DNA of 64,000 nt, from IMG/VR virus record IMGVR_UViG_2737471993_000002; one strand, 5' to 3'. The position numbers and the translations under genes are program-made. The number at the start of each line of letters is the position of its first letter. The stretch's first letter is position 1. Of the stretch, positions 26,391-62,306 are shown one piece after another. The DNA is from a virus (taxonomy: Duplodnaviria; Heunggongvirae; Uroviricota; Caudoviricetes). The notes beneath the pieces were generated by a model, which made no database searches, was not told where the DNA came from, and saw nothing but the letters and a program-made list of their open reading frames with translations.

Positions 26391-26392
26391 TT

Positions 26393-46219: not shown

Positions 46220-49200
46220 CTTCTCACTTGGGGAGTCGGCTCTAAAAGCAGAAAACGCGGTGAAGATTGCCAGAGAAGCTGGCTACACCGCTGTAATTTC
46301 AGCAGATAGCATGAATATTGCGAGCGTTATTCCACTACAACGTGCCGCTGGTGACGACATGGCGGTTATTTGTGGTGTGAAACTAAACATTGTTGATGAT
46401 CCCACATACGAGCACCGGGCTAAACTTGCTAAAGAATCTATGAGATGTATGGAATCATTAGAGCGGGGACGTAACTACTCGTTTACCGCTCTAATTAAAA
46501 ATGAGCAAGGATATCGCGACATCTGCGAACTAATGACGGCGGCCAACACACGAGAACAGTTCTACTTTGTACCGCGTCTCTCGCTCGAACAGTTGGTTTC
46601 TACATATGCCAAAGGCAACATCATCCTGCTTACTTCCGACATCGGTAGCGTGTTCCAACGCAACGATTTTGCAAAAATCATAAGCACACTGATTACAGCG
46701 GGTGGAAAAGACAACTTCTATAGTGTGGTTTATCCGCACCCTACCCCATTCTACGACCAGATTAACGTCCGGGCGATGAAAGTCGCCAGCGCATTGAAAA
46801 TAGAGCCAGTGGCGTTCTATCCCGCTTATTACGAATCGATCGACGATGCAGACATTAAAGACATTGCGCACATGGTTACGAACAACATCAAAATCGACCA
46901 GCCGCATCGTCTGCGTATCCCCCACCAGCGAGATAACGCCGTCAATGGTCGCCGCCATCTCCTTGAGGCGCTTAAAGCCTTCTCCGTTCGCATGGATGTG
47001 CCGGTAACAGCTGCAATGGCCTCAACAACGCAGGATACCATTATCGATGCCTGCACATGGCGCTGGCATGAATTGCCGCCAGCACTGCCAAAGATGGCAG
47101 ACGACGAGCCTGCAACGCTTATGAAACTGGCTGTTGCAGGGCTGCGTAAACGTCTTACCACAAAAGAGTTTGGCTACACACCACCTGCTTCTGAGAACAG
47201 GGTTTATGTTGAGCGGCTAAAGTACGAAATGGACACGCTGACTCGCCTGGGATTTTGTGGTTACTTCCTGATGGTACGCGATCTGATGAATCATAGTCGT
47301 GAAACTGGCATTCCCGTTGGGCCTGGTCGTGGTTCCTCTGCCGGTTCTCTGGTGGCGTGGTGCATAGGCATAACCAACGTCGACCCAATCCGTCACGGTC
47401 TTCTGTTTGAGCGTTTCATCAACCCTGAGCGTCTCGACTTGCCGGATGCGGACTTGGACTTCAGCCAGGCACGTCGCCATGAGGTGATCGAGTATCTGAA
47501 TGAACGCTACGGCGAAGATTACGTTGCGGGTATTCCGAACTTCACCTACCTGGGCGCAGCCTCTGCACTACGTGATACCGCTCGTATTTATGGTGTGGAG
47601 TCCGCAGATATGGCGGTATCAAAAGAACTGAAGAACGTCGAGGATGATAGCCTTCCATTGGAAGAGCTGCGCGAACAACTGGCAAGTCTCGACAAATACG
47701 CAACAAAATATCCTGATGCATTCAATGCAGCCTGCAAGTTACAAAGCCTTATGCGTGGCTTTGGTAGACATGCGGCAGGGATGATCGTAGCAGGTGTTCC
47801 TCTGACAGAACGTACACCGGTTGAGCGCCGTGGTGACGCGCGTTGTATCGCATTTGACAAGCGTTACTGCGAGGCTATGGGCCTAATTAAGCTGGACGTG
47901 CTTGGCCTGGCAACTCTCGATTTGCTCGATAGTGCAAAACGCTACATAAAAGAGAACACAGGTGAAGATATCAATCTTGATGCCATTTCTCTTGAAGATC
48001 GCAAGGTGCTGGATGGTTTTGCTGCTGGGTACACTCAAGGTGTTTTCCAGCTTGAATCAGGCCCAATGCGCAAGCTGCTTAAAGATTTAGGTGGTGGAAT
48101 TGAGCCAATGAGCTTTAAAACGGTCGTCGCTACAACTGCGCTCTTCCGGCCGGGGCCAATTCAATCAGGCATGTTGGATGACTATGTTTCTGTCGCCAAA
48201 GGCTTTATGACGCCGGAATCATTACACCCCGTTCTTGATGAACTTACCGCGGAAACAAATGGCGTGATTCTCTATCAGGAACAGACGATGAACGCGACTC
48301 GATTGCTTGCCGGCTTCACAATGGCTGAAGCTGACGCTGTGCGTTCCGCAATCGGTAAGAAGAACATGGAAAAAATGAAGAGCATGGGCGAGAAGTTCAT
48401 CGTTCAGGCTCAAGCTGGCTGGATAGACGTTGAGCTGGAAGATGGCACTACACAGCGCATTCACCGTGCGGAACATTTTAAATGCGAAGACGGAACTCTG
48501 AAAACTGTCGAAGAGGCACTTGAGCACGGCGCAAAACTACCTATAAACGCAGTACGCGTTACAGCGTCACATCCAGGGCTATCAGAGATGAAAGCGAAGG
48601 AGATCTGGACCGCATTTGAGAAAAACGGAGCCTATCAGTTCAATAAATCACACTCCGTTGCTTATTCTTTAATCAGTTATCAGTCTATGTGGCTAAAGAC
48701 GCACTACCCTGCTGAGTTCTTCGCAGCTGCGCTCACCATTCTGGGCGAGGATAAGCATCAGGGGCTGGTGAAGGATGCGCTGACCTATGGCATTCGCGTA
48801 TTGCCACCAGACGTTAATGTGTCATCTAACCGAATTGAGATCCGCACACTCGAAGACGGCAGTCAGGCACTGTATGCGCCATTCTCTGCTGTGAAAGGCT
48901 GTTCTGAAAATGGTTGTCAGGCAATTATGCGTGCGCGTGAGAAAGTTGGTGGCAAATTCGAGTCAGTGGCACAATTCGATGAAGCGGTCGAGAAGCGTGC
49001 ATGTAACAGTCGTGTACGCGAGTCGCTTCATAAAGTAGGGGCTTTTGCGTCAATTGAGCCAGGCAGTCTGCCAGCAACTGATCCTGAACGACTGCGCGAC
49101 CAGGCTGAGCTGATGGGCAATCTCATCATTGACGCTGTTAAAGCATCACGTCCGTTCGAAATGAATCCTAAGCGTTCTGCCGAAATCAACGTACTTATGA

Positions 49201-49712
49201 CACGTATGGCGGCTGAAATGGGCTTGGGTGAGGAGTTGATACGCCCGACTATTGGTATTAAACCCAAAATCATGATCATTCTGGACAATGCGAACGGCAA
49301 TGACGCTCGTACCGGCTACTTCATGGAGAACGGATACGACGACTTTAAGGCAAAACTACTGACAGTTGGAGATCTGCGCATGGGCGATCTTTATGTCACG
49401 GGTGTTTGTAAGAAGGTTAAGGACAAAGAGAAAGACTATACCAAAGACGAGATAGGCCAGTTCACAGACTTTATGCGGGAAGAAATTAATCTTGTACGAC
49501 CAACCTACATTTTGACGTGTGGTAGTCGTTCAACCGCACTATTTAACAATAAGAGTAAACCATCAGATCTGATTGGTCGTAAGGAGTACTTCCCAGAGCT
49601 TGATGCAACCGTCTTCTACGGATTTAACCCGAATATCCTGTACTTCCGACCGGAAGAAGGAGAGCGACTGGAGGCCATTCTGGCTGATATCGCGGAGACA
49701 ATAAATAAGTAA
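46194..49712 (+). CDS. dnaE: DNA polymerase III alpha subunit (DnaE-like)
   Basis: 1172 aa with DnaE-like catalytic core segments (GLIKLDVLGLATL, ILYQEQTM) and an N-terminal PHP-like region. Confidence 0.8.
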   Translation: MKALMVRTDFSLGESALKAENAVKIAREAGYTAVISADSMNIASVIPLQRAAGDDMAVICGVKLNIVDDPTYEHRAKLAKESMRCMESLERGRNYSFTALIKNEQGYRDICELMTAANTREQFYFVPRLSLEQLVSTYAKGNIILLTSDIGSVFQRNDFAKIISTLITAGGKDNFYSVVYPHPTPFYDQINVRAMKVASALKIEPVAFYPAYYESIDDADIKDIAHMVTNNIKIDQPHRLRIPHQRDNAVNGRRHLLEALKAFSVRMDVPVTAAMASTTQDTIIDACTWRWHELPPALPKMADDEPATLMKLAVAGLRKRLTTKEFGYTPPASENRVYVERLKYEMDTLTRLGFCGYFLMVRDLMNHSRETGIPVGPGRGSSAGSLVAWCIGITNVDPIRHGLLFERFINPERLDLPDADLDFSQARRHEVIEYLNERYGEDYVAGIPNFTYLGAASALRDTARIYGVESADMAVSKELKNVEDDSLPLEELREQLASLDKYATKYPDAFNAACKLQSLMRGFGRHAAGMIVAGVPLTERTPVERRGDARCIAFDKRYCEAMGLIKLDVLGLATLDLLDSAKRYIKENTGEDINLDAISLEDRKVLDGFAAGYTQGVFQLESGPMRKLLKDLGGGIEPMSFKTVVATTALFRPGPIQSGMLDDYVSVAKGFMTPESLHPVLDELTAETNGVILYQEQTMNATRLLAGFTMAEADAVRSAIGKKNMEKMKSMGEKFIVQAQAGWIDVELEDGTTQRIHRAEHFKCEDGTLKTVEEALEHGAKLPINAVRVTASHPGLSEMKAKEIWTAFEKNGAYQFNKSHSVAYSLISYQSMWLKTHYPAEFFAAALTILGEDKHQGLVKDALTYGIRVLPPDVNVSSNRIEIRTLEDGSQALYAPFSAVKGCSENGCQAIMRAREKVGGKFESVAQFDEAVEKRACNSRVRESLHKVGAFASIEPGSLPATDPERLRDQAELMGNLIIDAVKASRPFEMNPKRSAEINVLMTRMAAEMGLGEELIRPTIGIKPKIMIILDNANGNDARTGYFMENGYDDFKAKLLTVGDLRMGDLYVTGVCKKVKDKEKDYTKDEIGQFTDFMREEINLVRPTYILTCGSRSTALFNNKSKPSDLIGRKEYFPELDATVFYGFNPNILYFRPEEGERLEAILADIAETINK

Positions 49713-49742: not shown

Positions 49743-50015
49743 AAAGAATTATGGCGCTTGTTGAGGAAGTCACTCCTCTTACGCACTTTGTTTTGCCATG
49801 CCGGCAGTTAGCTTCTGCCTTTGACTATTCATGCGGCAACCCCGCATTTCGCCACAATGGGCAATTCACTTTTATGGAATAAACTGGCCGTTGTGTCGAT
49901 TTAATTAGCATGGCCTTACCATGCTAATTTATTCAACTTGTACAATCCTACAAATCTATCCACTCAGGCTTACACCGTCTTCGTTATTGTAGAAATGAGG
50001 ATCATCAGCGTTGAA

Positions 50016-50231
50016 TCAGCTTAGAGCAACGACATTTGCTGCTGCTGGGCCTTTAGCCCCATTCTCGATAGAGAATTCGACCTGCTGGCCTTCTTCCAAA
50101 GTGCGGAAATTATTACTCTGAATTGCCGAAAAATGTACAAAAACATCTTTACTGCCATCAGCAGGAGAAATAAAGCCAAAGCCTTTATCAGAGTTAAACC
50201 ATTTTACTAAACCAGTCATTTTATTAGACAT
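50016..50231 (-). CDS. cold-shock protein (CspA family)
   Basis: [21 protein letters not shown]...VFVHFSAI contains the RNP1/RNP2-type cold-shock motifs; the track ORF is N-terminally extended. Confidence 0.8.
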
Positions 50232-50560
50232 AGATATTACCTTCTTAATTTTGTGAGCCACATAGTGCGGCGAGAATTTGATCTGTATAGATTGGGACTT
50301 ACTTAGGCACTTAAGGAGGAGACTCACGAAGAAGGGAAATCAGAAGATAACACTGAACTGAGACTGCTTTACTAAAACTGCTTACATAAGGTCTGTCTTG
50401 CAAACCAACGATGCTATTAACGCATACCCCTTCTTTTCATGCAACCTTTATTTTTCAAAGATAACTAATTTTTGTCACCATTGGTTTAGTAAACGTTAAC
50501 GAACCAGACGATGCCAGACACCTTTACAGAGAACAGATGCCCGCCAATTGGCGGGCATCA

Positions 50561-51124
50561 TTATGCGCATTTCGCAATATCTTTGCGGCGTTTAATCAGT
50601 TTCTCCGCAATTTGCTCTATTTCGTTGAAATCTTTCGAGACGCTGTTTCGAAGCGCCAGATTCCATTTACTCAAAGTTCGGGCATTTTGGACAATTTGAT
50701 CGCCCTCTTTAAGTCGTCCGTTATTCATGAGCCATTCAGCCACATCAGCCCAATCCCAGAGAGGAGACTGGCCTTTTATGCGTTGTACAGGGCAAGGGAA
50801 GTCGCCGCTTCCGCGCTTACCGTCTTTGAGCAACGCCACCGCCTGGCGAGACAGGTCTGTCAGTTCCGCGATATCGCTTAAGCCCACAAGAGCCGAGTCG
50901 ACGGATTCAACAATTGCACCGATACCGGCTGATTCAATATTGTCGACCGCAGATGCGATAGCTGCATCAAGTGATTGTGCTTCGCGGTCAAATTCTACAT
51001 AGACGGAGTTTCCATATGCGCAAATTAGCGCATCGTCACAGCCGTTTTGGTACAGCGCGTCTTCCAGTCCTTCCGTCTCATACGATACGCCTGAGAGCGT
51101 CAGAGTGAAGTTATAAAGCGCCAT
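50561..51124 (-). CDS. putative antitoxin-like DNA-binding protein (HicB-like N-terminus plus excisionase/AlpA-type HTH)
   Basis: ATG at 51124 preceded by AGGAAA. C-terminal segment IAELTDLSRQAVALL...FPCP...W.WADVAEW fits an AlpA/excisionase-like HTH. N-terminal domain assignment is tentative. Confidence 0.3.
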   Translation of the reverse strand: MALYNFTLTLSGVSYETEGLEDALYQNGCDDALICAYGNSVYVEFDREAQSLDAAIASAVDNIESAGIGAIVESVDSALVGLSDIAELTDLSRQAVALLKDGKRGSGDFPCPVQRIKGQSPLWDWADVAEWLMNNGRLKEGDQIVQNARTLSKWNLALRNSVSKDFNEIEQIAEKLIKRRKDIAKCA

Positions 51125-51184
51125 AGTTTTCCTTTGAAGATAGTTGGACAGTTTCTGCAAAAGGCGGCTAATGCCGCCTTGAAA

Positions 51185-51409
51185 TCATTTACAACGATCA
51201 ACCATTCGTTTGATCTGTTTGGCATGGTTTTCGGGATTACCCGGAGTCGACCATACGCTCATTTGGTGAGTTTTGTGTTCACCTTCTGGATTACCGCATC
51301 GCAGTCTGCAAAAACAATGTGCAGCACCACCAGCTGCTACCCAGATCCAGCCTTTACTTAATGCATAGTCAATGGCTGCTTGAATATGCTTATTCGGATG
51401 TTGCTTCAT
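51185..51409 (-). CDS. putative HicA-like small toxin
   Basis: 74 aa, GGAGG site upstream. Loose resemblance to the HicA pattern (GW...GGAAHCF...G....H......P.N...IKRMV); low confidence. Confidence 0.3.
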   Translation of the reverse strand: MKQHPNKHIQAAIDYALSKGWIWVAAGGAAHCFCRLRCGNPEGEHKTHQMSVWSTPGNPENHAKQIKRMVDRCK

Positions 51410-51663
51410 TCGCCTCCGATAATAGTATTCTATTCACAGTGTTGACATCTGTCAACGGCGACTGAATTTCATCCGTTCATGCCACACCCCCATCCATCTC
51501 ATGTATGTGACCTAAAGATGGTCAGCACAGCTTACCAAAATAAGACAACTAATTATCTTCGGTGATCTCAATATTTTCCCCTGAACAAAGTTGACATGAC
51601 GCCATAAACCCGTTCTCTGTTTGATATAATTGATACAGATTTTATAAGTAGGAACCTATTAGA

Positions 51664-52095
51664 GTGAACACTGATATTTTTTCTAAAATCATGGCCGATC
51701 TGGAGTTCGACCGCGACAACCTTGAGGAAGTATGGCGTAAACAGCCACGGCTTTTAATGGAGTATGGGTCAAAACTAGCGCAGGCAGATCGAGATGTCGC
51801 AGAGGCAAAACTTAACCTTGAAGCTGTTGAAGCAAAGCTATACGACACAGAGCGTAAGAACTTGAGTATGAACGGCATTAAGTTCAACGAGTCTGTACTG
51901 GACGCTAAGGTTAAAACAAACCCACAGTATCTGTCTAAACGGCAGAAGTTGGATGAAGCACGGCACATCGCAGACATATACAAACATGCTGTCGCCGCCT
52001 TTTCGCATCGCCGAGACATGATCGTTCAGGCGTCAAAGATGGCCATCGTTGAATTAGAGCGATTAGGCTCTGAACGCTTTATTACTCCCCGTTGA
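51664..52095 (+). CDS. hypothetical coiled-coil protein, possibly UvsY-like recombination mediator
   Basis: 143 aa with GTG start, directly upstream of the gp32-like SSB; size and position fit UvsY but similarity by eye is weak. Confidence 0.3.
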   Translation: MNTDIFSKIMADLEFDRDNLEEVWRKQPRLLMEYGSKLAQADRDVAEAKLNLEAVEAKLYDTERKNLSMNGIKFNESVLDAKVKTNPQYLSKRQKLDEARHIADIYKHAVAAFSHRRDMIVQASKMAIVELERLGSERFITPR

Positions 52096-52212
52096 TTTTT
52101 GATAGATAATAAGTAAGTACTGATCTATCATTTAACAGCTCGAAAGAGCCACGAATGAACGAAAGCCCAACGCGCATAGCGCCATCGGCCAAATCACAAC
52201 AAGGAGAAACAC

Positions 52213-53241
52213 ATGTCTAAGACATTACTTGATTTGCTTAACAAAACTCGTGAAGACATTGCCGCCAAACGTGGCAACAACGTTGATCTGACTCGCTTAA
52301 AAGACGGCGTCAACTATATCCGCATCTTCCCGAATAAAGACGACCCAAACGGTAAGTTCTTCCAGACTTTCGGTATGCACTACGTTAAGTATCAGAACGA
52401 GGAAGGTAAAGAAGCAACCAACGCTTATATTTGTGAGCAACATACTCACGGTCGCGCTTGTCAGCTATGCGAAATGGTTATGGAAGGTCGCGCTCGTCAC
52501 AAGGGTAACAAAGCAATGGAAGAACGCATCGGTCAAATGCGTGCCACTCCTCGCTACCTGGTCAACGGCATTCTTTCTGCTCGTGAGGATTTCGCAGATG
52601 CTGAGAAATGCCAGTTAATCGAGCTGCCGTCTACTGTATTCGATGATATCTGCAAAGCAATCACCGAAGACATCGCTGATGATATCGGCAATCCACTGAG
52701 CAAAGAGGAAGGCTACGCATTCCTGATTAAACGTACTGGCTCTGGTCGCGATACCAAATATGACGTCTCGCCTAAGCGTAAAGTCTACAAAGGCGATATC
52801 GAAGATAAATTCTGGAACACCCAGCATGATCTGATCGCATACGCAAATCAGGCTGATGAAACTCGTCTTCTGTCGACAGTTCGCACTATGGGTCGTCTGA
52901 TTGGCATCGCTGCACCAACTGCCGCAGCATCTGCACCAGCAATTTCCTCAACCGCGAAAACATCGGCTGCGGCACTACCTGGATTTGGCTCTGTCACTGG
53001 TCATACAGAAGGAGCGACGGCTGTAGCAACCGCGCACACACCGGCTTCTGAACCAACCAGTCTGGTTGATGAAGAAATCCTCCGTGCCGTTGAAACTGAA
53101 TTTAAACCAGAGGCAAGTTCCGCTGCCGTTGCCGTATCAGTCAAAGAGTCTGAAGCAGTCGCAGCGACATCTGTAGCAACCGCATCTGCGACGGAAGATG
53201 AAGGTCTGGATGACCTACTGAGAGAGCTGGACTCTCTGTAA
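52213..53241 (+). CDS. single-stranded DNA-binding protein (T4 gp32-like)
   Basis: Zn-binding-like C..H..C..C cluster (CEQHTHGRACQLCEM), N-terminal segment resembling the gp32 core, and acidic C-terminal tail (DEGLDDLLRELDSL). Confidence 0.6.
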   Translation: MSKTLLDLLNKTREDIAAKRGNNVDLTRLKDGVNYIRIFPNKDDPNGKFFQTFGMHYVKYQNEEGKEATNAYICEQHTHGRACQLCEMVMEGRARHKGNKAMEERIGQMRATPRYLVNGILSAREDFADAEKCQLIELPSTVFDDICKAITEDIADDIGNPLSKEEGYAFLIKRTGSGRDTKYDVSPKRKVYKGDIEDKFWNTQHDLIAYANQADETRLLSTVRTMGRLIGIAAPTAAASAPAISSTAKTSAAALPGFGSVTGHTEGATAVATAHTPASEPTSLVDEEILRAVETEFKPEASSAAVAVSVKESEAVAATSVATASATEDEGLDDLLRELDSL

Positions 53242-53250
53242 TCCCATTAC

Positions 53251-54246
53251 GTGACCAGTAAGGCGTCTACGGACGCCTTACTTTTTGGAAGGAATGTACC
53301 GGTGAATTATCTCTTCGTAGATGGCAATAGCCTGGGTTATTACCATCAACAATCTGACAAATTGCACAACGGCGAAATGGAAGTACAGGCTGCTTTCGGC
53401 TTTGTTAAGAACGTCCGTCGTTATGCCTCCATCCTCCATGCCCGACCTATGATTCTTTGGGATGGATTTAGTGACAAGCGTCGCGACTTTTACCCGGACT
53501 ACAAAGCAAATCGCGACGACGATCCTGATATGAAAAAGATGAAGGAAGGCTTTGCTATCCAGAAGCCATACATCCTCAAAATGATGACCGCGCTTGGAGT
53601 TACCCAACTCATTGCAAAAGATGCAGAAGCGGATGATCTGGCCGGGCTGCTGGTATCCCGCATGGCACCGCAGCCAACCGTTGAACACATCTATCTGTTA
53701 ACAGGCGATAGCGACTGGCTTCAGTTAGTTCGTGAAAACGTAAGCTGGGTAAGCCTGCGTGAAGACGCCAAAAACAAGCAGGTTAATTTTGAGCAATTTG
53801 CGGAGCTGACAGGATTCGCCACGCCTCGCGCATTTTTGGAAGCAAAAGCATTACAAGGCGATAACTCGGACAACATTAGCGGTGTTGGTGGCATTGGTGC
53901 TGGCGGTGCGAAAGAGCTGCTGCATGAATGGGGAAGTGTCGCAACGATGGTACGCGGCATCAACGACGGCTCAATCGTGGTTAATAAAGGGCGTCATAAG
54001 ACCGCCTTCAACAAACTAGCGAAGAATGCCTTCAACGAGAAAACAGGCTGTCGAATGCTCGAAGCGTTCAAGAGAAACATCACGCTAATGAACCTGATTG
54101 AGACGAAGTTTCCGCCTACCGAAATCGAAACAATCAAAGGCAATCGTGACGTGAAAGCATTCGAGCAACTGTGCTACGAGCTGAATTTCCGTTCGTTCCT
54201 TGAAGACCTTGAAGTGTTTGTTCTTCCATTCGAAAGGTATTTCTAA
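53251..54246 (+). CDS. 5'-3' exonuclease / flap endonuclease (RNase H-like)
   Basis: H3TH-like Gly-rich segment GDNSDNISGVGGIGAGGAKELL and N-terminal acidic PIN-like region (YLFVDGNSLGYY, TGDSDWLQL). Confidence 0.7.
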   Translation: MTSKASTDALLFGRNVPVNYLFVDGNSLGYYHQQSDKLHNGEMEVQAAFGFVKNVRRYASILHARPMILWDGFSDKRRDFYPDYKANRDDDPDMKKMKEGFAIQKPYILKMMTALGVTQLIAKDAEADDLAGLLVSRMAPQPTVEHIYLLTGDSDWLQLVRENVSWVSLREDAKNKQVNFEQFAELTGFATPRAFLEAKALQGDNSDNISGVGGIGAGGAKELLHEWGSVATMVRGINDGSIVVNKGRHKTAFNKLAKNAFNEKTGCRMLEAFKRNITLMNLIETKFPPTEIETIKGNRDVKAFEQLCYELNFRSFLEDLEVFVLPFERYF

Positions 54247-54512
54247 TGCTTAAATCGATTATCAATGGCGCTACAACCACCCCTGCCCAACTGGCAAAAG
54301 AGATTGTCTTTTATCACGGTGAGTACGCTGTCATCGCACTGCCGTCAATTCTAGGCGCTGCCGGAATGAAAGCGACAGATCGCGAGTTTGGATTAGTCAG
54401 CGAGCAGGTCGTAAAAATCCTCGCTCGTGTATCCAGACTCCTTAACCACGATGCGATTGTATTCGATGAATCCGCCGCTTTAAAACGAATCAACGAAACA
54501 AAAGGAGCCTGA
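54246..54512 (+). CDS. hypothetical protein
   Basis: 88-aa ORF translationally coupled between the FEN and RecA-like genes. Confidence 0.4.
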   Translation: MLKSIINGATTTPAQLAKEIVFYHGEYAVIALPSILGAAGMKATDREFGLVSEQVVKILARVSRLLNHDAIVFDESAALKRINETKGA

Positions 54513-54514
54513 TC

Positions 54515-55588
54515 ATGGCAAAAGGAAAATCCGCACTGGCACTTGCTCTGAAAAAGAAAATCGGTAGCAACGACGAAATTCAGAAAGTAACTCATTGGAT
54601 TGATACAGGCTTTCCACCGTTAAACAAAGCTATTTCTGGTCGTTACGATGGCGGCTTCCCATGTGGTCGTATCGTCGAAGTATTCGGTCCTCCAAGTGCA
54701 GGGAAAACGTTCCTTGCAACAGCAGCGATGATCTCCGCTCAAAAACAAGATGGTCTGGCGGTATTCCTCGATCATGAAAACAGTTTTGACGTTGGCCTGG
54801 CTGTCGCCAATGGCCTGAACGCAGATGAGGATGACGGTCAGTGGGTATACAAGCAGCCAGATACCTTCGAAGACTCTGTAGAGTTGATCGGCACAATACT
54901 TAAATTGGTTCGTGATGAAGAGCTTATCCCCGAATCAGCACCAATCTGTATCGTGGCTGACTCTCTTGCGTCTATGGTTCCGAACTCCAAAGCCGAGAAG
55001 TTCGAAAAGATGGCTGAAGGCACTGCCAAAGACAAAGATCAGCTAAACATGAACGACAATACGGCACTGGCTCGTGCGACGAGTGCGAACTTCCCTACTC
55101 TGGCTTTGTGGGCACGCAAATACAACGCCTGCATCATCTTCTTGAATCAGGTTCGCACAAAAATCGGTGTAATGTTTGGCGACCCTACTACGTCGCCAGG
55201 TGGAGATTCACCGAAGTTCTACGCTTCTGTACGTATCCGTCTTGGTGCATCGGTGATGAAGGATGGTAAAGAGAAGATCGGCCAGGACGTAGGCGCAGAA
55301 TGCATCAAAAACAAAGTTGCACCACCGTATGGCAAATGCACCTGGAAATTCTACTTCGATCCTACTCGTGGCCTCGACGTTATCGAATCGCTCGTCGAGT
55401 ACATGCTGGAAGAAGGATACCTGCCAAAGAACGCCAGCGGGCGAGTTGAAATTGGTGACAAGAAATACACCAAATCGCAGATCGTCGAGATGTATCGGGA
55501 GAAGCCACTGGCTGAAATCATTGCGGCTTTGCAGGCAATCGACGACCGAAGAGCAAAAGACAACCCCACCGAGTCAGTAGAAGAGTAA
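54515..55588 (+). CDS. RecA/UvsX-family recombinase
   Basis: Walker A GPPSAGKTF and overall RecA-core layout; 357 aa. Confidence 0.75.
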   Translation: MAKGKSALALALKKKIGSNDEIQKVTHWIDTGFPPLNKAISGRYDGGFPCGRIVEVFGPPSAGKTFLATAAMISAQKQDGLAVFLDHENSFDVGLAVANGLNADEDDGQWVYKQPDTFEDSVELIGTILKLVRDEELIPESAPICIVADSLASMVPNSKAEKFEKMAEGTAKDKDQLNMNDNTALARATSANFPTLALWARKYNACIIFLNQVRTKIGVMFGDPTTSPGGDSPKFYASVRIRLGASVMKDGKEKIGQDVGAECIKNKVAPPYGKCTWKFYFDPTRGLDVIESLVEYMLEEGYLPKNASGRVEIGDKKYTKSQIVEMYREKPLAEIIAALQAIDDRRAKDNPTESVEE

Positions 55589-55593
55589 ACACA

Positions 55594-55617
55594 AGGCGTC
55601 CACAGGACGCCTTTTTT
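55594..55617 (+). terminator. rho-independent terminator
   Basis: AGGCGTC-CACAG-GACGCCT followed by TTTTTT. Confidence 0.7.
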
Positions 55618-55680
55618 ATCTCTTGAAAATATATAAGCACTTACTTATTATTTTCGCATAACAACCACATAGGAAAACAC

Positions 55681-55881
55681 ATGATCAAAATCTATCTATT
55701 GGCAGTAGCCACAGGCCTTTCAGTGGCTCTCATCTACGGTTTACTGGTTCCGTCGCTGATTTCTACCAAGAGTGATTTAGCCGTCATGTTTGGAGTTATC
55801 GTTGGTTTTGGTGCTCCTGTAATCGGTCTTATTGCTGGTCGTAAGTTTATCAACTCATTAATCAAAGCAAAGGGGAAATAA
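55681..55881 (+). CDS. small two-TM membrane protein
   Basis: 66 aa, two hydrophobic helices, immediately upstream of the SPFH gene. Confidence 0.4.
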   Translation: MIKIYLLAVATGLSVALIYGLLVPSLISTKSDLAVMFGVIVGFGAPVIGLIAGRKFINSLIKAKGK

Positions 55882-55884
55882 GTA

Positions 55885-56715
55885 ATGAAGAAAGGTTTAC
55901 TTGCAGTTGCTCTGGCGGCTATTTGCACAATGGGTCTTACTGGCTGTGATCGCGTGGAGCCTGGATACGTTGGCATCAAAGTAAACAAATTAGGTGAAGA
56001 CAAAGGGATTGGTGAAGTGGTTGGCGTTGGTCGCCAATGGACAGGTCTTAACACCGAACTTTACGTATTCCCGACCTTCAAACAAATGAAGACCTACGAC
56101 GAGCCGTTCACATTCCAGATGAGTGACGGTACTGCTATTGGTCACAAAATTGGCGTTGCGTATCTGGTTAATCGTGACAAGGTAACGACGGTGTTCCAGA
56201 CCTATCGCAAAGGCGTAGACGATATCACCGAATCAGATCTGCGTCAGAAAATTGCCGACTCTCTAAACCGTTTGGCCAGCCGTATGACCACTGACTCATT
56301 TATCGACGGTGGTAAGGCACAATTGCTGGACAACGCACTGAAAGATATTCAGAAAGAGATGTCTCCGGTTGGTATTGAGGTACTGAGCCTGTCATGGGTT
56401 GGAAAGCCTGATTACCCAAAAACTGTCATTGAATCTATTAACGCCAAAGTAACGGCTAACCAGCGTACTCTGCAACGTCAGCAGGAAGTTGAACAACGTA
56501 AAGCTGAGGCGAATATGCTACGTGAACAGGCTAATGGTGAAGCTGATGCTATCCGTGCTCGTGCGCAAGCAGAAGCAGACGCCATTCGTCTGCGCGGTGA
56601 AGCTCTGCGTCAAAACCCGAACGTTATGGAACTGGAAGCCATCAATAAATGGAATGGCCAGTTACCGCAGTACATGACTCAAGGGGCTAACACTCCTTTC
56701 ATTACAGTGAAATAA
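55885..56715 (+). CDS. SPFH/band-7 (stomatin/prohibitin-like) lipoprotein
   Basis: Lipobox LTGC after the signal peptide; band-7 core followed by a charged coiled-coil tail (QRQQEVEQRKAEANMLREQANGEADAIRARAQAEADAIRLRGEALRQ). Confidence 0.7.
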   Translation: MKKGLLAVALAAICTMGLTGCDRVEPGYVGIKVNKLGEDKGIGEVVGVGRQWTGLNTELYVFPTFKQMKTYDEPFTFQMSDGTAIGHKIGVAYLVNRDKVTTVFQTYRKGVDDITESDLRQKIADSLNRLASRMTTDSFIDGGKAQLLDNALKDIQKEMSPVGIEVLSLSWVGKPDYPKTVIESINAKVTANQRTLQRQQEVEQRKAEANMLREQANGEADAIRARAQAEADAIRLRGEALRQNPNVMELEAINKWNGQLPQYMTQGANTPFITVK

Positions 56716-56731
56716 CTCCCCTAAAAAGTTC

Positions 56732-56757
56732 AGGCGTCCAGTTGGACGCCTTTTTTA
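56732..56757 (+). terminator. rho-independent terminator, near-identical to the one at 55594
   Basis: CAGGCGTCCA-GTTGGACGCC followed by TTTTTT; same stem sequence as the 55594 terminator. Confidence 0.7.
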
Positions 56758-56806
56758 TCGCAATTATCTTATTAAGAAAACAATTTGTTTAAAAGGATAA
56801 GAAAAC

Positions 56807-57232
56807 ATGACAGCTATTAAGAAACTCTACGATGCCGCAAACGTGGCTCTGGATGTTATTGATGATGAAGCAGCAAAAGGCTTTCCTGAACCTGATTGGG
56901 CGCATCAGCTACGAAACGCTATCGCCGAAATGAATCCACCAGATCCGACCACCGACGAGACAGACTGGCAGCGATTTATCCGTATGTACGCTCAGGAAAT
57001 AGGTCCAACGCCAACGGCAGAGCAAGCAATGCTGCTGAAATACTTCAAAGAGGCGGGAGAGGATTTACCAATTGATGACTCAGCATATTGGTTCCACTGC
57101 GCATGGCGTAAGTATGACGTGATATTCACACAAGGCATGGGGAGCAAAGATATGGTTGTGTGGCATCTACTCCATATAGACACAGCCGTTGACAGAGTTA
57201 TTGAACAGTTTTTCCCTAAACAAGAAGATTGA
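56807..57232 (+). CDS. hypothetical protein
   Basis: 141-aa ORF preceded by the shared GAAAACAATTTGTTTAAAA element. Confidence 0.45.
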   Translation: MTAIKKLYDAANVALDVIDDEAAKGFPEPDWAHQLRNAIAEMNPPDPTTDETDWQRFIRMYAQEIGPTPTAEQAMLLKYFKEAGEDLPIDDSAYWFHCAWRKYDVIFTQGMGSKDMVVWHLLHIDTAVDRVIEQFFPKQED

Positions 57233-57287
57233 TCGCCTATTCATAACTAACAAAATAAGTAAACACTAACCACAAAAGGAAAAACAC

Positions 57288-57563
57288 ATGAGAGTTTTAG
57301 TTCGAATCGTTACCAGCACTGTCTATGACGTGTTTCCGCTTTTTATGGTCAAAGCCGATGGCCTTAACGACGAAGAAACTGACGCGCTGATCCAGCGTAT
57401 TCTCGTTGAATATACAGGTCATGACGCTGATTCAGTGATGGTTGATGATGATGGTGTTTGTTGGCATAACGGCAACTGTTGGTACGTAGAAGAGACTCAA
57501 CAAATCAGTGATGAAGATGCCGCACATCTTGAGCGTATTTTAAGCATCAGCACTTTTGAGTGA
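57288..57563 (+). CDS. hypothetical protein
   Basis: 91-aa acidic ORF preceded by the AAAGGAAAAACACATG leader. Confidence 0.45.
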   Translation: MRVLVRIVTSTVYDVFPLFMVKADGLNDEETDALIQRILVEYTGHDADSVMVDDDGVCWHNGNCWYVEETQQISDEDAAHLERILSISTFE

Positions 57564-57778
57564 GTTTACAGTAAAATTTATATAAGTTAGTGTCTACCTA
57601 TCATGAAGATTTTTATTGAATACTTGTTACTCATCGTTTCAATAGCTTTTGTCATCGACTGCATTTTCACCGGTGTCATTCGTAAAGTCTTTTCCCCGGT
57701 GAACGACGTAGTCATAAACGCTTTGGCTATCGTGCTCGTATTTAATTCAGCATTTGATGTAATCAAAGAGGTGGCAGC

Positions 57779-58114
57779 ATGAAGGCCATCCCATTCGCGC
57801 TGTTGTTCCTTTCTTCGATCGTTGTGGCCGACACCACTGTTTATCAGTGTGAAATGTCTGTAGCCGACGTTAAGAATGGCGCTCTTACCGACGTCATAAA
57901 AGCACCATATGGAGCGATGGTCGTAGACAGCGGCGACCAGTTCTATGTTGTGCGTGACGATCGAGTGTTGTCATCCCCATATCTCACAAATCGTAATGGC
58001 AAATTAACCGGCGTCGGAGAAGACCACTTCGTATACAACAAATACAAGGGCTTCTATGGTGTTCACGCTTCTCAGCAAAGCTACCTTTTCGATGACTGCA
58101 AGGAGGTTGGATAA
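57779..58114 (+). CDS. hypothetical secreted protein
   Basis: 111 aa with N-terminal signal peptide (MKAIPFALLFLSSIVVA). Confidence 0.45.
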   Translation: MKAIPFALLFLSSIVVADTTVYQCEMSVADVKNGALTDVIKAPYGAMVVDSGDQFYVVRDDRVLSSPYLTNRNGKLTGVGEDHFVYNKYKGFYGVHASQQSYLFDDCKEVG

Positions 58115-58326
58115 TGGCATTAACACTGGCAGGTCTGGAAATCGAGAAAACAAGCGGCTACTGGCGTGCTAAGGGTTTCAAGCAGCCTGGCATTCTTGAG
58201 CGTCTGGAACGTGAAGATGGGTATATCGTCCACCAGCGGCGTGAATGGCGTATGTACGATCCAGAAACAGGAAAACTGACTACAAAAGCCGGAACACTTT
58301 GGGGTCTGTTAAAGAAAATACACTAA
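58114..58326 (+). CDS. hypothetical protein
   Basis: 70-aa ORF coupled to the previous gene; followed by an 8-bp stem hairpin at 58336-58357. Confidence 0.4.
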   Translation: MALTLAGLEIEKTSGYWRAKGFKQPGILERLEREDGYIVHQRREWRMYDPETGKLTTKAGTLWGLLKKIH

Positions 58327-58373
58327 ATGCAAACTGACTGCGGCACGTTCCGCAGTCATATTTCATAGTCGTC

Positions 58374-58906
58374 ACCGCTGACAGCATACACAATCAACTA
58401 CCGCTGATAGCATATCGAGAGTCTATCTCACCGCTCACAGCATACTTTACTCGATTTTTTACCGCTGACAGCATACTTAAGACATTGCATGAATAATGTG
58501 TACCGGTATGGGTATAACCAGAACAAAATTACCGCTGGCAGCATACGAAGGTCTGACATATACCATTAATTACCGCTGATAGCATATCCAAACAAAAATT
58601 CCTCAATAAAACACCGCTGACAGCATACGTTCTATCAGGGAGCAGCAGGCAATAAATGCCTTTCACTACAAGCAATCAGCGCAATAGCAATAGAATGTTA
58701 GTGAGCGCAAACCTATATGGAATGCACTCTTCGAGGTTAGTAACCACTGGGGAGGTATGACAGAGCATTGAGTGGTGATAGATGATTTACCGCCCACAGC
58801 ATACGTTCATCTCACTATACCGCTGGTAGCATATATTTAACCGTTTACAGCATACTTTTCAGAAAAATAGCCGCTGATAGCATACATTTCACCGCTGACA
58901 GCATAT
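58374..58906. repeat. iteron array downstream of repA (incA-like): twelve copies of a 16-bp repeat
   Basis: ACCGCTGACAGCATAC and one- or two-base variants at 58374, 58400, 58430, 58461, 58531, 58572, 58613, 58789, 58819, 58840, 58870 and 58891, with irregular spacing and mixed spacer lengths. Confidence 0.8.
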
Positions 58907-60000
58907 CAAAGCAGTTTGAGACTATTGGAAAGGATCTCAATCATCTTGATATTTTCAGGCGTCAAATTCTGCGAAAGTTCGGTTATCTTGTTGATAATGT
59001 TCTGTTTGGCATCAATTTCCCCAGCTTTCTCATCTAGTTTTTTGGGTTCGATGTCTTCAGGTTTTGGCGGTGCGACTTTGAGTTTTGGATTGCGGCTGTG
59101 AATCTGGATATAGATCGACCGCCCTCGCTTAATCTCGCTGTATTCGAGATAACCCAAATCTTGGAGAGCTTTTAAGCCGTTGCGTATAGTCTGATTCTGC
59201 GAGCTGACATTCCTGCTACTCAAATTGAGTCGCGCACGCAATCGAGCAAGCGATACCGGCGCAGGCTTGGTTGGAAGACTTTCGATGAAGGTGTACAGAG
59301 CCTGTGCTGTTTCTTTGCGTGGTAGCTTATTGATAACCTTTAACTGCAAAAGAACCTTATGGTCAAAGCGATATAGTTCGGCCAGCTTCGGTTCTGCATA
59401 GAACACCACCGTATCTTTCTGCTCGTTGTAGTCCACGCTATTGATGAGGTGCACCATCAGAAGCGAGATCTTGTTAGAGCCGTCGACGTTCTTTTCTTCA
59501 TACGTTCTCTGGAAAGACAGAGTTGTACGCATGATCTTCAAAAGACTGTTTGTAAGCCGGTCGCGGAGTGTTTTGCGGATCTGTGACGATGGATAGCCAC
59601 AAAACTTCGCAAATTTCGTGATGCTTAACTCGACACGACCGTTAGGTTCGCCGTATTCTGCCAGCGAACGCACAACGCCCACCCACGTTTTGAAATCATG
59701 ATCCATGTCGAGACGAGGACCGGTTATCTTGATATCGGAATAGCCTTCAGAACGGGCTACTTCGAGCTGAACAAGCTCCTTTGAAGCATCGATCTCATTT
59801 GGCTTGTTACGCTTGCTGTATTTTGTCCCCTTGAGCGTGGGCACGAACAATCCCAGCCGCATCAACGCAATTGGTTGGACTGTATTGTTGCTATTAGGGA
59901 CAAGTTCCCCTGTGTACAATTCAAGGGAACCTTCTTCAAAGTTGTCGAGATTATCTTCTACTTCTTTGTTATTTTTACCTTTTTTATTTTTTGTGGACAT
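58906..60000 (-). CDS. repA: iteron-binding replication initiator RepA
   Basis: 364-aa basic protein flanked on both sides by the same 16-bp iterons. The track ORF (to 60120) is extended through the upstream iterons; the ATG at 60000 (MSTKNKKGK...) is the plausible start. Confidence 0.7.
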   Translation of the reverse strand: MSTKNKKGKNNKEVEDNLDNFEEGSLELYTGELVPNSNNTVQPIALMRLGLFVPTLKGTKYSKRNKPNEIDASKELVQLEVARSEGYSDIKITGPRLDMDHDFKTWVGVVRSLAEYGEPNGRVELSITKFAKFCGYPSSQIRKTLRDRLTNSLLKIMRTTLSFQRTYEEKNVDGSNKISLLMVHLINSVDYNEQKDTVVFYAEPKLAELYRFDHKVLLQLKVINKLPRKETAQALYTFIESLPTKPAPVSLARLRARLNLSSRNVSSQNQTIRNGLKALQDLGYLEYSEIKRGRSIYIQIHSRNPKLKVAPPKPEDIEPKKLDEKAGEIDAKQNIINKITELSQNLTPENIKMIEILSNSLKLL

Positions 60001-60020
60001 GTGGACACCTTTGTCATTCA

Positions 60021-60122
60021 ACCGCTGACAGCATACTTGATTTGCCGCTGACAGAATACCAAAAACAGTTGGCAGCATACGGTGAACCGCTGACAGACTA
60101 TCAATTACCGCTGACAGCATAC
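60021..60122. repeat. iteron array upstream of repA (incC/origin-like): four to five copies
   Basis: ACCGCTGACAGCATAC-type repeats at 60021, 60044, 60086 and 60107, plus a partial copy near 60067. Confidence 0.8.
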
Positions 60123-60162
60123 ATGAACATGGCTTCAGACCAGTCGTGGCGCGGCTTACAGC

Positions 60163-60235
60163 GATCGGGGATCTTATTTGATCTATACAAGGATCTATCT
60201 ATGGATCTCTTTATTAGGATCTATCCTGTGGATAT
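60163..60235. promoter_or_regulatory. origin-like region: six GATC sites in GGATCTAT-type repeats plus a DnaA-box-like site
   Basis: GATC at 60163, 60170, 60180, 60192, 60204 and 60218; TGTGGATAT at 60227-60235 is one mismatch from the reverse complement of the DnaA box TTATCCACA. Confidence 0.5.
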
Positions 60236-60321
60236 GTGAATAATTAAAACAGGCATTTACTACCTTCGGCGCACCTGGTGGGTTATCGTTGCCTCGGCTA
60301 ACAATCACAGAAAAATGACAT

Positions 60322-60966
60322 ATGGATCTAAAACGTACGCGCTGGGTTCGTCGTCTTGAAGACGGCTCCTACACTATCGAATCAAATTCCAACCTGAATA
60401 AGCAGAAGTTGCTTTGTGACATCTGCGGTATAGCGGCGAAGTGCCCGATCTACGAAACCAGAATTAAACTTGATAAGGCTGGTGTGAATTTTCATTTAAA
60501 CAGTTGCATCAGGTACGTTCCATTACTCGCATTTCGTAAACCGATCATCGGATTGGATGCTCCCTACTTCAACACACTCCGTTCAGGTGTGACGTGGCGA
60601 GATCGTTTATCACCAGACAAGCTGATTTGCCTCGTATCCGCAGACACAGGGAAAATCATCCGTTTTGGGAAAGTAGACAAGGTTTACTCAGGCCCAGTAG
60701 ACGAAATGTTGCGGAAACACAGCCGGTTTAATCATCTCTGTATGGGTGGTGAGAAAATCGAGAAAGTAGAAGAAGTGATCCGCAAATCCTACGGACACTT
60801 TCTGACCAAAGATAGCCTGCTCACCGCAATCTACATCAGACATGTAAAACGTGAGTTCGACCTCGAATACCACAGCGAAGAAGAGCTTAACCTTGTTGAC
60901 CCACGTCCAAAAGCTGGCGTCATAAGCATAAACGCAGCGCGTAAAAAGCCCACTGACGCGCTGTAA
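60322..60966 (+). CDS. hypothetical protein
   Basis: 214-aa ORF downstream of the origin; no recognisable motif. Confidence 0.5.
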   Translation: MDLKRTRWVRRLEDGSYTIESNSNLNKQKLLCDICGIAAKCPIYETRIKLDKAGVNFHLNSCIRYVPLLAFRKPIIGLDAPYFNTLRSGVTWRDRLSPDKLICLVSADTGKIIRFGKVDKVYSGPVDEMLRKHSRFNHLCMGGEKIEKVEEVIRKSYGHFLTKDSLLTAIYIRHVKREFDLEYHSEEELNLVDPRPKAGVISINAARKKPTDAL

Positions 60967-61220
60967 CCCTCCAGATCGTATATTGGCGTAGATAGAATCT
61001 ACGCCCCCTCAAAATAGCTCTCATAGCGTTCTACAGTGATCCTGTCTTATTTTTAGTCATACAGACAAGCAAAGTTGCGCCACGATAAATAGGTATATAC
61101 TTACTTATAAATTTTGTATATTAAGGCGCTCGTTTCATTCCTAACATACCGTTATGCATAGTTGTTTACCTCCTCATTGCTCTTAGAATTTGTATCAAAA
61201 TAACCACAAAGGAAAAATAC

Positions 61221-62306
61221 ATGACTTTGCCATACGGCGTCATTTCTGACTGCCACTACCACAAATGGGATGCGTTCTCCACGACGAACGCTGAGGGGCT
61301 TAACTCCAGACTTGAAATACAGTTGGAAGCAACGAAAGAAGCAGCCATCGCCATGAAGAAGGCCGGTTGTAAGTACATGTTGGTTGCCGGTGATACATTT
61401 CACGTCCGAGGAACTGTGTCCCCTTCTGTTTTGCATTACGTAACTGAAACGTACAAGTGGATTATCAACGAGCTTGATCTGACAGTAGTAATGCTGGCCG
61501 GTAATCACGATCTTGAAACCAACGATTCAGTATATAGCGCCAACGCAGCAGCATCGCTGAGTTCTATCGGCGTGGTAATCGTATGTGGCAAGCGCCCACA
61601 CTCAATAAAAATTGGTGATGTGACTGTCCACCTGATTAGCTGGCGTAACAATCATGCGGAGCTTATCAGCGATCTGAAAGCATTACGTAAGAGCGTAGAA
61701 GGTGATAATCATGACGTTGTTATCCATACATCCATTAACAAAGCCATTCCAACAATGCCTGACGTCGGTATCGATGCGCAGGAGTTAAAGGATATCGGCT
61801 TTCGTCTCGTGCTTAGTGGGCATTACCACAACCACAAAGAGGTCATTCCTGGAGTTATCAGTGTCGGTGCACTGACTCATCAAAATTGGGGAGATGTTGG
61901 ATCTCTGGCTGGCTACATGATCGTAAACCCGGACGGCAGTTTCAGTCACTACGAAACCAGTGCGCCTAAATTCATTAACCTGGAAGATGATGTTGCTGAT
62001 GACCAAATTCGCGGCAACTACGTGCGTTTCCGCGCCGTAATTGAGAACGATGAAGAAGGCATTAAGTACCAGAACATCCTCAAAACAATGGGTGCAAAAG
62101 GTGTCGTGTGCAACTTCATCCGTAAGTCATCAATGATGGAAGGGACAGCCAGCACAACTGAAACCAGCAAAATCGATAGCCTGGGAGAGTCGGTATCTGC
62201 TTATTGCAAGATTGTCCACGATACTGACGGCGGATTTGATCTGAGCAAATTGGATATTTTGTGTCAGGAAATCCTCACCGAAGCGGAGAGTTCGGAGGCT
62301 GTGTGA
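61221..62306 (+). CDS. SbcD/Mre11-family nuclease (T4 gp47-like)
   Basis: Calcineurin-like phosphoesterase motifs DCHYH, GDTFH, GNHD and GHYH in canonical order. Confidence 0.7.
   Translation: MTLPYGVISDCHYHKWDAFSTTNAEGLNSRLEIQLEATKEAAIAMKKAGCKYMLVAGDTFHVRGTVSPSVLHYVTETYKWIINELDLTVVMLAGNHDLETNDSVYSANAAASLSSIGVVIVCGKRPHSIKIGDVTVHLISWRNNHAELISDLKALRKSVEGDNHDVVIHTSINKAIPTMPDVGIDAQELKDIGFRLVLSGHYHNHKEVIPGVISVGALTHQNWGDVGSLAGYMIVNPDGSFSHYETSAPKFINLEDDVADDQIRGNYVRFRAVIENDEEGIKYQNILKTMGAKGVVCNFIRKSSMMEGTASTTETSKIDSLGESVSAYCKIVHDTDGGFDLSKLDILCQEILTEAESSEAV

Follow-up and report, generated by a model that had tools for sequence, protein, structure and literature searches.

A P1-type plasmid replicon set into a replication and recombination gene array of an SSU5-type phage-plasmid: indications of two replication programmes

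Why should one element encode both the initiator of an iteron-based plasmid replicon and a set of recombination proteins of the kind known from the lytic cycle of phage T4? This question is raised by the IMG/VR virus record IMGVR_UViG_2737471993_000002 (Caudoviricetes), of which we analysed one strand of 64,000 nucleotides (the window), and in particular by the gene module at positions 51664-55588. According to a preliminary description of this DNA, recombination genes and a RepA plasmid replicon reside together on the element, which would imply a switch between two replication modes. The explanation that we favour, and consider probable, is that of an SSU5-type phage-plasmid with a separately controlled plasmid replicon and an ancestral lytic replication-recombination array. 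That the element has two separately regulated replication systems is, in our judgement, very likely; for recombination-dependent replication as a major or essential lytic mode, we put the chances at slightly under even.

Judged by its sequence, the window is part of an SSU5-type phage-plasmid of Escherichia coli, a well-known kind of element. The type is defined by genome-wide similarity to SSU5 and its relatives and by the combination of siphovirus structural genes with plasmid replication and partition genes on one replicon of roughly 100-110 kb. Over positions 51000-63000, the window is 98% identical to the Escherichia phages PhiR41_1 and Cyrano (pLF82) and 79% identical to Salmonella phage SSU5; many E. 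coli plasmids with sizes of about 100-112 kb match it at 99% identity. Its first 25 kb match the structural genes of PhiR41_1, Cyrano and SSU5. Over the structural and replication regions together, identity is 98% to Cyrano and 79-80% to SSU5, and a ParA-like gene, RepA and iterons are present. Plasmid CP099286.1 has a copy of the module with 100% identity, and 761 of 944 matching plasmids, from Klebsiella, Escherichia, Enterobacter, Yersinia, Salmonella and other hosts, contain at least 80% of it. In substance the finding is not new, since the public Cyrano record carries the same gene labels (UvsY recombination mediator, SSB T4 gp32-like, Exonuclease, RecA, RepA, SbcD-like and SbcC-like endonuclease subunits). 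According to Pfeifer et al. (PMC7969092), the persistent genes of the SSU5 supergroup include those for RecA-like proteins and resolvases, and the group has distant relatives in phage nickie and in Acinetobacter phage-plasmids. A 2026 preprint on heteroresistance proved not to be relevant, as it covers an unrelated 49-kb phage-plasmid family.

We first describe the plasmid replicon (coordinates of all features are collected in the table below). RepA, which has a Rep3 WH1 domain, is 43.5% identical to RepA of P1/P7, 99% to that of PhiR41_1, 87.5% to those of Klebsiella phage-plasmids and 48% to those of Cyrano and SSU5. Its gene is flanked by 17 iterons with the core ACCGCTGACAGCATAC, scored at three mismatches or fewer, five of them upstream and twelve downstream. 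Outside these flanks, the core has a single weak match in the whole 64 kb, and no second iteron-like or tandem array was found in the window besides the tail-fibre repeats. The claimed co-residence with an iteron/RepA replicon is therefore upheld: a Rep3-family initiator, iterons on both sides, and two DnaA boxes together with a GATC stretch beside the origin iterons make up a replicon of the P1/RepFIB type. DnaA-box-like 9-mers with one mismatch are not enriched window-wide, and the case for the two boxes therefore rests on their tandem position. The oriR of P1, whose layout with incC and incA flanking repA serves as our comparison, is a theta replicon that needs RepA, DnaA and Dam methylation, and its iteron layout is the same as here. 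By homology to P1, replication from this origin would likewise be of the theta type and dependent on RepA and host DnaA.

The alignment with Cyrano shows that a defined part of this replicon is exchangeable. Window and Cyrano are 99.4% identical up to position 54706, 96.7% identical over 54704-58343, and 97.3% identical from 60134 to the window end. The 1.8-kb stretch in between (58344-60133), which comprises the downstream iterons, repA and the upstream iterons, has zero nucleotide similarity to the corresponding Cyrano block (L001 20612-22692), and the iteron core of Cyrano, TAYAGTGGAT, is unlike that of the window. The GATC cluster and the DnaA boxes belong to the backbone that both elements have in common. 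Since the backbone holds these sites and the cassette is replaced, the part of the origin that confers specificity is swapped as one block between near-identical elements. The exchange of repA with both iteron arrays looks like replicon (incompatibility) swapping. The cassette is located between recA and the ASCH and sbcD genes. We found no paper on the cassette nature of the replicon or on its position inside the array in the literature searched for SSU5-type elements.

The second component is the module itself, an operon of five open reading frames (ORFs) arranged head to tail and closed by a terminator. It encodes, in this order, a UvsY-like protein, a gp32-type single-stranded DNA-binding protein (SSB), a FEN-type nuclease, an 88-residue protein and a RecA-family recombinase. 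The first base of the 88-residue ORF is the last of the FEN stop codon, and the start of recA comes 2 nt past the stop of this ORF, which has no homologue in the genome of phage nickie. The preliminary description had claimed a gp32-like SSB, a FEN/RNase H nuclease and a RecA/UvsX-like recombinase, and all three are present where it placed them, according to Pfam and fold comparisons. The SSB scores 224.7 bits against PF08804 (cut-off 26.8). Its residues H56, C74, C83 and C86 are invariant in 21 homologues, a pattern that matches the His/Cys3 zinc site of T4 gp32; zinc binding is putative. A phmmer search against PDB sequences gave no match even at E 10. In a fold search with a model built from the 21 homologues, the top six PDB matches were gp32 of T4 or RB69 (E 8e-8 to 6e-4), and the first match beyond these followed at E 0.24. 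An N-terminal helix is present, and a conserved acidic tail, DEGLDDLLRELDSL, follows the disordered linker. For the FEN protein, both domains score above the cut-off (PF02739, nuclease, 86.4 bits; PF01367, H3TH/SAM-fold, 46.1 bits). Its nearest solved structures are the T5 D15 exonuclease (4e-15) and the Pol I 5' nuclease, and T4 RNase H is absent among the structure matches at E 0.001 or better.

The recombinase, with the Walker A motif GPPSAGKT, matches structures of bacterial RecA at 1e-31 to 1e-35, UvsX-type phage proteins at 1.5e-10 and 2.3e-9, and T4 UvsX (3io5) at 1.1e-5. Cyrano carries an insertion of 1264 bp after window position 54706, between K64 and T65 of this P-loop, and the window allele is empty. 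Many plasmids have this insertion too, and it is annotated as LAGLIDADG homing endonuclease or as intein-containing RecA; several of the distant loci described below have recA ORFs of 2.1-2.4 kb.

A scan for sigma-70 promoters returned fewer sites than in shuffled sequences and no convincing promoter for the operon, and an Rfam scan of 51.4-62.6 kb revealed no RNA element. Control of the operon by LexA, as part of the SOS response, was considered and is unsupported, because the only LexA site of the window (40483-40498) is far from the module and at chance level (0.82 expected). This site, a perfect match to the LexA-box pattern CTGTTTACTTATACAG, is located just upstream of a tyrosine recombinase gene (40527-41630) and overlaps one copy of the ATAAGTA motif.

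The product of the first gene of the operon had been called a possible UvsY-like mediator. It gives a weak, nearly full-length match to PHROG 231, 'UvsY-like recombination mediator' (E 1.9e-4). No Pfam family matches it (PF11056 included), and searches with the ORF and two family profiles against PDB sequences returned nothing meaningful. An AlphaFold2 model based on 18 homologues reached a pLDDT of 91.5. In a Foldseek search with this model, the top 19 PDB matches were all T4 UvsY chains, with 128-139 aligned columns and TM-scores of 0.72-0.80 (normalised to the query) or 0.72-0.93 (normalised to the target); the first other folds were unrelated helical proteins with TM-scores of at most 0.5. 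A profile search of 1.84 billion representative proteins yielded 3458 relatives at E 0.001 or better. Five of 43 sampled distant relatives weakly match the Pfam UvsY family PF11056 (best E 0.0016), and no other family recurs. Moreover, the gene is neighbour to those of gp32 and RecA here and in most of 80 distant loci. Because of the fold, the PHROG 231 match, the weak Pfam matches of relatives and the gp32/recA adjacency, we accept the product as a distant UvsY-type mediator, for which oligomer formation and loading activity are predicted. In many relatives the UvsY-like domain forms the C-terminal third of a protein of 300-420 residues, and PHROGs 1069, 9245 and 4969 show the same C-terminal placement.

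The remaining parts of a replisome and its nucleases are encoded in the same window. Domain matches confirm the dnaE, helicase, primase and ligase genes that had been listed alongside the module. The SbcD/SbcC-like pair announced from position 61221 onward could also be substantiated: a metallophosphoesterase gene (Metallophos, PHROG 100) is located beside a gene for an SMC-like ATPase (AAA_23) with a CxxC hook (CPTC), the C-terminal ATPase half of which is beyond the window. Past its HHH_6 domain, DnaE extends for about 215 residues without a Pfam match (residues about 956-1172, 49061-49712). The ORF between the replicon and sbcD, labelled ASCH in Cyrano, has no Pfam match. Genes for a UvsW-like protein and RuvC are annotated in Cyrano, in a region outside the window. 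Counting these two on the strength of the Cyrano annotation, analogues of all members of the T4-type set for recombination-dependent replication were found except gp59, for which no dedicated search was made.

Beyond the SSU5 group, we fetched 80 viral loci with a distant UvsY-like protein as bait, to which the UvsY proteins of the loci are about 34-47% identical, and searched the six-frame ORFs of these loci, many of which are truncated, with the window proteins. The first scan gave close relatives only, and an alignment of distant members only was too divergent; the distant loci were reached by re-ordering the alignment. The order DnaE, UvsY, gp32, FEN, RecA, (ASCH), SbcD, SbcC is kept in these loci. 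DnaE was detected in 76 of them, UvsY in 75, gp32 and FEN in 67 each, RecA in 56 and the ASCH-labelled ORF in 19. RepA, HicB and SPFH gave no match in any of the 80. Inspection by eye of the gaps between recA and sbcD revealed divergent ASCH ORFs, a conserved ORF of about 135 residues, a cell-wall-hydrolase-like ORF and one transposase-like ORF, but no initiator (Rep-like) gene. Many of the contigs are 100-120 kb long.

This gene order bears on the idea that the module is a toolkit of general use in recombination and repair or in anti-defence, directed against damage by restriction, CRISPR or RecBCD or serving mosaic exchange, and dispensable for replication. Phage-plasmids swap genes frequently, and RecA-like genes persist in the SSU5 supergroup (PMC7969092), which would fit such a role, as would the cassette swap and the intein polymorphism, both signs of active recombination in the region. 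However, the order DnaE, UvsY, gp32, FEN, RecA, SbcDC is strict across relatives whose UvsY proteins are only about 25-45% identical, which points to a core function linked with the replisome, and a gp32-type SSB and a FEN nuclease are replication proteins. We consider a mere repair or defence kit improbable.

Cultured phages with relatives of the UvsY-like protein are Pseudomonas Nickievirus phages, Rhizobium phages (e.g. RHEph10, B1VFA) and a Xanthomonas phage, with genomes of 106-122 kb. We used 35 window proteins as queries against the whole 112-kb genome of Pseudomonas phage nickie, which we had rebuilt. Colinear homologues were found for the ORF at 28306, helicase, primase, the ORF at 34461, ligase, CobT, CobS and DnaE, and further for the UvsY-like protein, gp32, FEN, RecA, ASCH, SbcD and SbcC. 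No homologues were found in nickie for RepA, ParA, the ParE-like ORF, the integrase and the helix-turn-helix repressor (41625-42011), nor for Csp, HicA, HicB, the 88-residue ORF, SPFH, the five small ORFs and several low-GC accessory ORFs. The comparison therefore separates two gene groups, a core in common with phages that lack any homologue of the plasmid replicon, and added plasmid or lysogeny genes that interrupt it at several places. Among these additions is a 4.7-kb insertion between recA and ASCH that holds the replicon. In nickie, the UvsY-like domain is the C-terminal part of a 426-residue protein (L164 10155-11435). Nickieviruses are predicted to be virulent, have no lysogeny genes and possess long direct terminal repeats, and their authors guessed that RecA serves replication (PMC11256456; PMC8537276). 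The Rhizobium phage B1VFA has the same array, but here parAB and a RepC-type replicon (PMC12509600) are located upstream of dnaE. By gene order and content, the replication-recombination array is older than the plasmid lifestyle.

Is the array silent in the plasmid state? Published expression data for the LF82 Cyrano lysogen, grown overnight in LB, point in this direction. The average normalised RNA-seq counts were 294 for hicA, 141 for hicB, 133 for repA and 96 for the repressor, compared to 10.9 for uvsY, 10.2 for recA, 10.1 for dnaE, 9.1 for gp32 and 6.6 for the exonuclease, with a floor of 5 (PMC9928086, S1 Table). The log2 values of sbcD are in the same low range as those of dnaE, uvsY, gp32, exo and recA. 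The repressor is given as 10 times the local background (PMC9928086), which places the background at about 10. Measured against it, repA is on and the array off in the plasmid state of the Cyrano lysogen. Per chromosome there are 5.5 copies of Cyrano, and ciprofloxacin induces it 39-fold (PMC9928086). These data speak to a role of the module in the plasmid state itself, such as fork restart or the avoidance of multimers in a 100-kb low-copy plasmid. Yersinia pestis pMT1 has kept the module over its full length, and so have many plasmids for which a phage nature was never demonstrated, as such a role would lead one to expect. But it stays at background in the lysogen while repA is on, it is kept by predicted-virulent relatives without homologues of the plasmid genes, and the tyrosine recombinase would be available for multimer resolution. 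A function primarily in plasmid maintenance is therefore very improbable.

Taken together, the colinearity with nickie, the cassette swap, and the active repA next to a silent array in the Cyrano lysogen support the two replication programmes suggested in the preliminary description. The mechanistic hypothesis is reasonable and better supported than it was there. In the plasmid state, RepA would act on the five iterons by the GATC stretch and DnaA boxes and recruit host DnaA, DnaB and Pol III, and the twelve downstream iterons would restrain the copy number, as incA does in P1. In the lytic state, the array (helicase, primase, ligase, DnaE, UvsY-like protein, gp32, FEN, RecA, ASCH, SbcD and SbcC) would be switched on and the phage would assemble a DnaE replisome of its own, in which gp32 would coat the single strands and FEN strip the primers. 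SbcCD would resect DNA ends, and the UvsY-like mediator would load RecA onto 3' tails covered by gp32. From the D-loops formed in this way, new forks would be primed, yielding branched concatemers for packaging, as in late T4 replication, and RuvC and the UvsW-like helicase encoded outside the window would process the branches. We infer the use of host factors by RepA, handcuffing and the recombination-primed lytic replication; resection, RecA loading, D-loop priming and branch processing are drawn by analogy with T4 and are consistent with the terminal repeats of relatives.

The same terminal repeats can be read differently. The genes might mainly handle DNA ends, by circularisation at entry, joining and repair, and late resolution of branches, and forks would then start from a separate lytic origin or from oriR. 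Relatives do have long direct terminal repeats (3.6 kb in B1VFA, PMC12509600; 'DTR (long)' in Nickievirus Nican01, PMC11256456), and terminally repeated ends need recombination or annealing to circularise or to form concatemers. In addition, an ORF upstream of the helicase gene that is conserved between the window and nickie might encode an initiator or loader. This ORF (28306-29055, 249 residues, directly upstream of the helicase gene) has a nickie homologue at 1.2e-16 and matches only PHROG 2500, to which no function is assigned. On the other hand, predicted-virulent relatives keep the full set although they never establish a plasmid, the 64-kb window has no second iteron or tandem array, and the genes are located inside the replisome array and share one operon with the SSB and FEN genes. 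We therefore regard a role restricted to DNA ends as unlikely, if the most serious competitor of recombination-primed replication.

Several observations weigh against the explanation that we favour. The array genes could serve the end-joining of terminally repeated DNA, repair or branch processing and be needless for the start of forks. A lytic origin with its own initiator might exist, and the ORF at 28306-29055 could be a candidate for this initiator or for a helicase loader. No loader of the gp59 type was identified, although no search was aimed at gp59. The recombinase is nearer to cellular RecA than to UvsX. Plasmid pMT1, which is not known to make virions, keeps the full-length module, a mild argument that the module may also matter in the plasmid state. 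The virulence of nickie is a prediction from gene content, and the RNA-seq data come from an uninduced overnight culture of a relative with a different repA cassette. Finally, our searches of the literature found no experiment on replication intermediates or recombination mutants of SSU5-type elements, and no study of recombination-dependent replication or virion termini in them.

A wider reading would cover the SSU5-type, Nickievirus and Rhizobium RHEph10/B1VFA types together with many environmental contigs. They would form a siphovirus clade of roughly 100-120 kb with obligate recombination-primed lytic replication, based on a cellular-type RecA, UvsY and gp32 coupled to a DnaE replisome, in which plasmid lysogeny arose repeatedly through host-suited replicon cassettes. 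A P1-type RepA would have been plugged in for enterobacteria and RepC for rhizobia, and cassette swapping would set incompatibility. We put this forward tentatively and think it rather doubtful as a whole. In clinical Enterobacteriaceae, phage-plasmids of the SSU5 type are frequent, and they carry resistance genes. If our interpretation is true, one could disable the plasmid replicon and the lytic machinery independently of each other, e.g. to cure the plasmid or to block induction. With a replicon that is exchanged as a cassette, repA would then be a misleading marker of relatedness in typing. The clade would also be a natural system that joins T4-style recombination proteins to a bacterial-type DnaE replisome.

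Table. Positions of the replication, recombination and inserted features in the 64,000-nucleotide window
Feature	Position	Strand	Evidence or remark
DnaB-like helicase	29099-30439	+	domain search
DnaG-like primase	30449-31702	+	domain search
ATP-dependent DNA ligase	34928-36250	+	PF01068 1.5e-12
DnaE (Pol III alpha)	46194-49712	+	PHP, DNA_pol3_alpha, finger and HHH_6 domains
Insertion between dnaE and uvsY-like gene: cspA-like gene with thermoregulator leader, then hicB, hicA	49991-51409	-	RF01766; HicAB labels in Cyrano
UvsY-like recombination mediator, 143 residues	51664-52095	+	PHROG 231; fold match to T4 UvsY
gp32-type SSB, 342 residues, disordered linker and acidic C-terminal tail	52213-53241	+	PF08804 1.7e-66
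FEN-type 5'-3' exonuclease	53251-54246	+	PF02739 2.2e-24; PF01367 6.9e-12
88-residue ORF	54246-54512	+	sole match PHROG 2207 (no function assigned)
RecA-family recombinase, 357 residues, intein-free allele	54515-55588	+	PF00154 2.2e-42
Intrinsic terminator closing the operon	55593-55621	+	9-bp stem with 6 GC pairs, then T run
Insertion between recA and replicon: small membrane ORF, SPFH protein, five small ORFs	55622-58343	+	Band_7 2.6e-30
Twelve iterons downstream of repA, incA-like copy-control array	58374-58906		ACCGCTGACAGCATAC
repA, P1/RepFIB-type initiator, 364 residues from ATG at 60000 (most likely start)	58906-60000	-	Rep3_N 5e-9
Five iterons immediately upstream of repA, origin/promoter iterons	60021-60122		ACCGCTGACAGCATAC
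GATC cluster, 6 sites in 59 bp	60163-60221		densest 80-bp GATC stretch of the window; background 3.9 per kb
Two tandem DnaA boxes	60227-60243		1 mismatch each
ASCH ORF (label in Cyrano), conserved member of the ancestral array	60322-60966	+	nickie homologue 2.8e-13
SbcD/Mre11-like nuclease	61221-62306	+	Metallophos 8.4e-10; PHROG 100 3e-93
SbcC/Rad50-like ATPase, first 488 residues, cut by window end	62536-64000	+	AAA_23 3.7e-16; coiled coil with CPTC hook

The array is interrupted by the two insertions listed in the table, the genes of which have no homologues in nickie. In the first, the cspA-like cold-shock gene carries a complete cspA thermoregulator leader (49991-50409, minus strand; RF01766, 185.7 bits), the only Rfam match in the scanned stretch, and no coding sequence is annotated at this place in Cyrano. 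In the second, the pair formed by the small membrane ORF and the SPFH gene is bracketed by two terminators (55593-55621 and 56732-56760) whose stems, AGGCGTCC...GGACGCCT, are almost alike; at the nucleotide level, the SPFH gene shares 76% identity with one in Escherichia phage P88. This pair looks like a moron cassette. Further accessory ORFs without nickie homologues occur in the replication region: a 567-residue ORF (26433-28136) in the stretch of lowest GC content of the window (26001-28000, GC 0.34), a Sel1-repeat protein (31694-32890, minus strand), and a protein with a weak AbiC-like match in a low-GC stretch (38593-39927, minus strand). They may be defence or host-interaction genes.

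An intergenic motif, ATAAGTAAGTA, is dispersed over the window, often as a palindromic sequence of about 24 bp that closely precedes genes on the plus strand (e.g. 4694-4717, 11199, 18117-18136, 28283, 33550-33569, 37072-37091, 52109, 55638 and 61085-61108). With up to two mismatches it has 44 matches in the window, against 14.9 +/- 3.6 in shuffled sequences; none is found in the repA cassette and none, at one mismatch or fewer, in phage nickie. By analogy with C1 of P1, it may be a dispersed repressor operator, or else a phage-specific promoter.

How does this arrangement compare with known systems? The replicon resembles that of P1 in its RepA (43.5% identical), in the five upstream iterons and the larger downstream array, and in the GATC repeats with two DnaA boxes. 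It differs in the iteron sequence and in the number of downstream iterons, twelve here versus nine in P1. Furthermore, P1 has a separate oriL/RepL for lytic growth and no DnaE, RecA, UvsY or gp32-type SSB of its own.

With the recombination-dependent replication of T4 (UvsX, UvsY, gp32, gp46/47, gp59, gp41/61, UvsW, gp49), the array shares the UvsY fold, the gp32 fold with its His/Cys3 positions, a RecA-family recombinase, and nucleases of the SbcCD type and the FEN family, and UvsW-like and RuvC genes are annotated in Cyrano. The earlier label 'T4-like' thus holds for UvsY and gp32, by fold. It does not fit the recombinase, which is nearer to bacterial RecA, the FEN protein, which is nearest to T5 D15 and Pol I, or the polymerase, a C-family DnaE in contrast to the B-family gp43 of T4. 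In addition, the helicase is DnaB-like, and the element is temperate and kept as a plasmid.

The closest likeness is to the SSU5 group (SSU5, pLF82 = Cyrano, PhiR41_1 and pHCM2/pMT1-like plasmids), which is colinear with the window genome-wide at 79-99% nucleotide identity and agrees with it in the content and order of the replication, recombination and structural genes. The window differs from Cyrano and SSU5 in its repA/iteron cassette (48% amino acid identity, unlike iterons), from Cyrano in a recA without an intein, and apparently from the group in some accessory ORFs, e.g. 26433-28136. Nickievirus (nickie) shares the colinear replication and recombination array from the ORF at 28306 to SbcC, CobT and CobS included, but it lacks homologues of the plasmid and lysogeny genes, is predicted to be virulent, and has its UvsY-like domain in a longer protein. 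The Rhizobium phages B1VFA and RHEph10 likewise share the array of DnaE, UvsY-like protein, gp32-like protein, exonuclease, RecA and nuclease, whereas the replicon of B1VFA is of the RepC type and located upstream of dnaE, in contrast to the position between recA and sbcD in the window.

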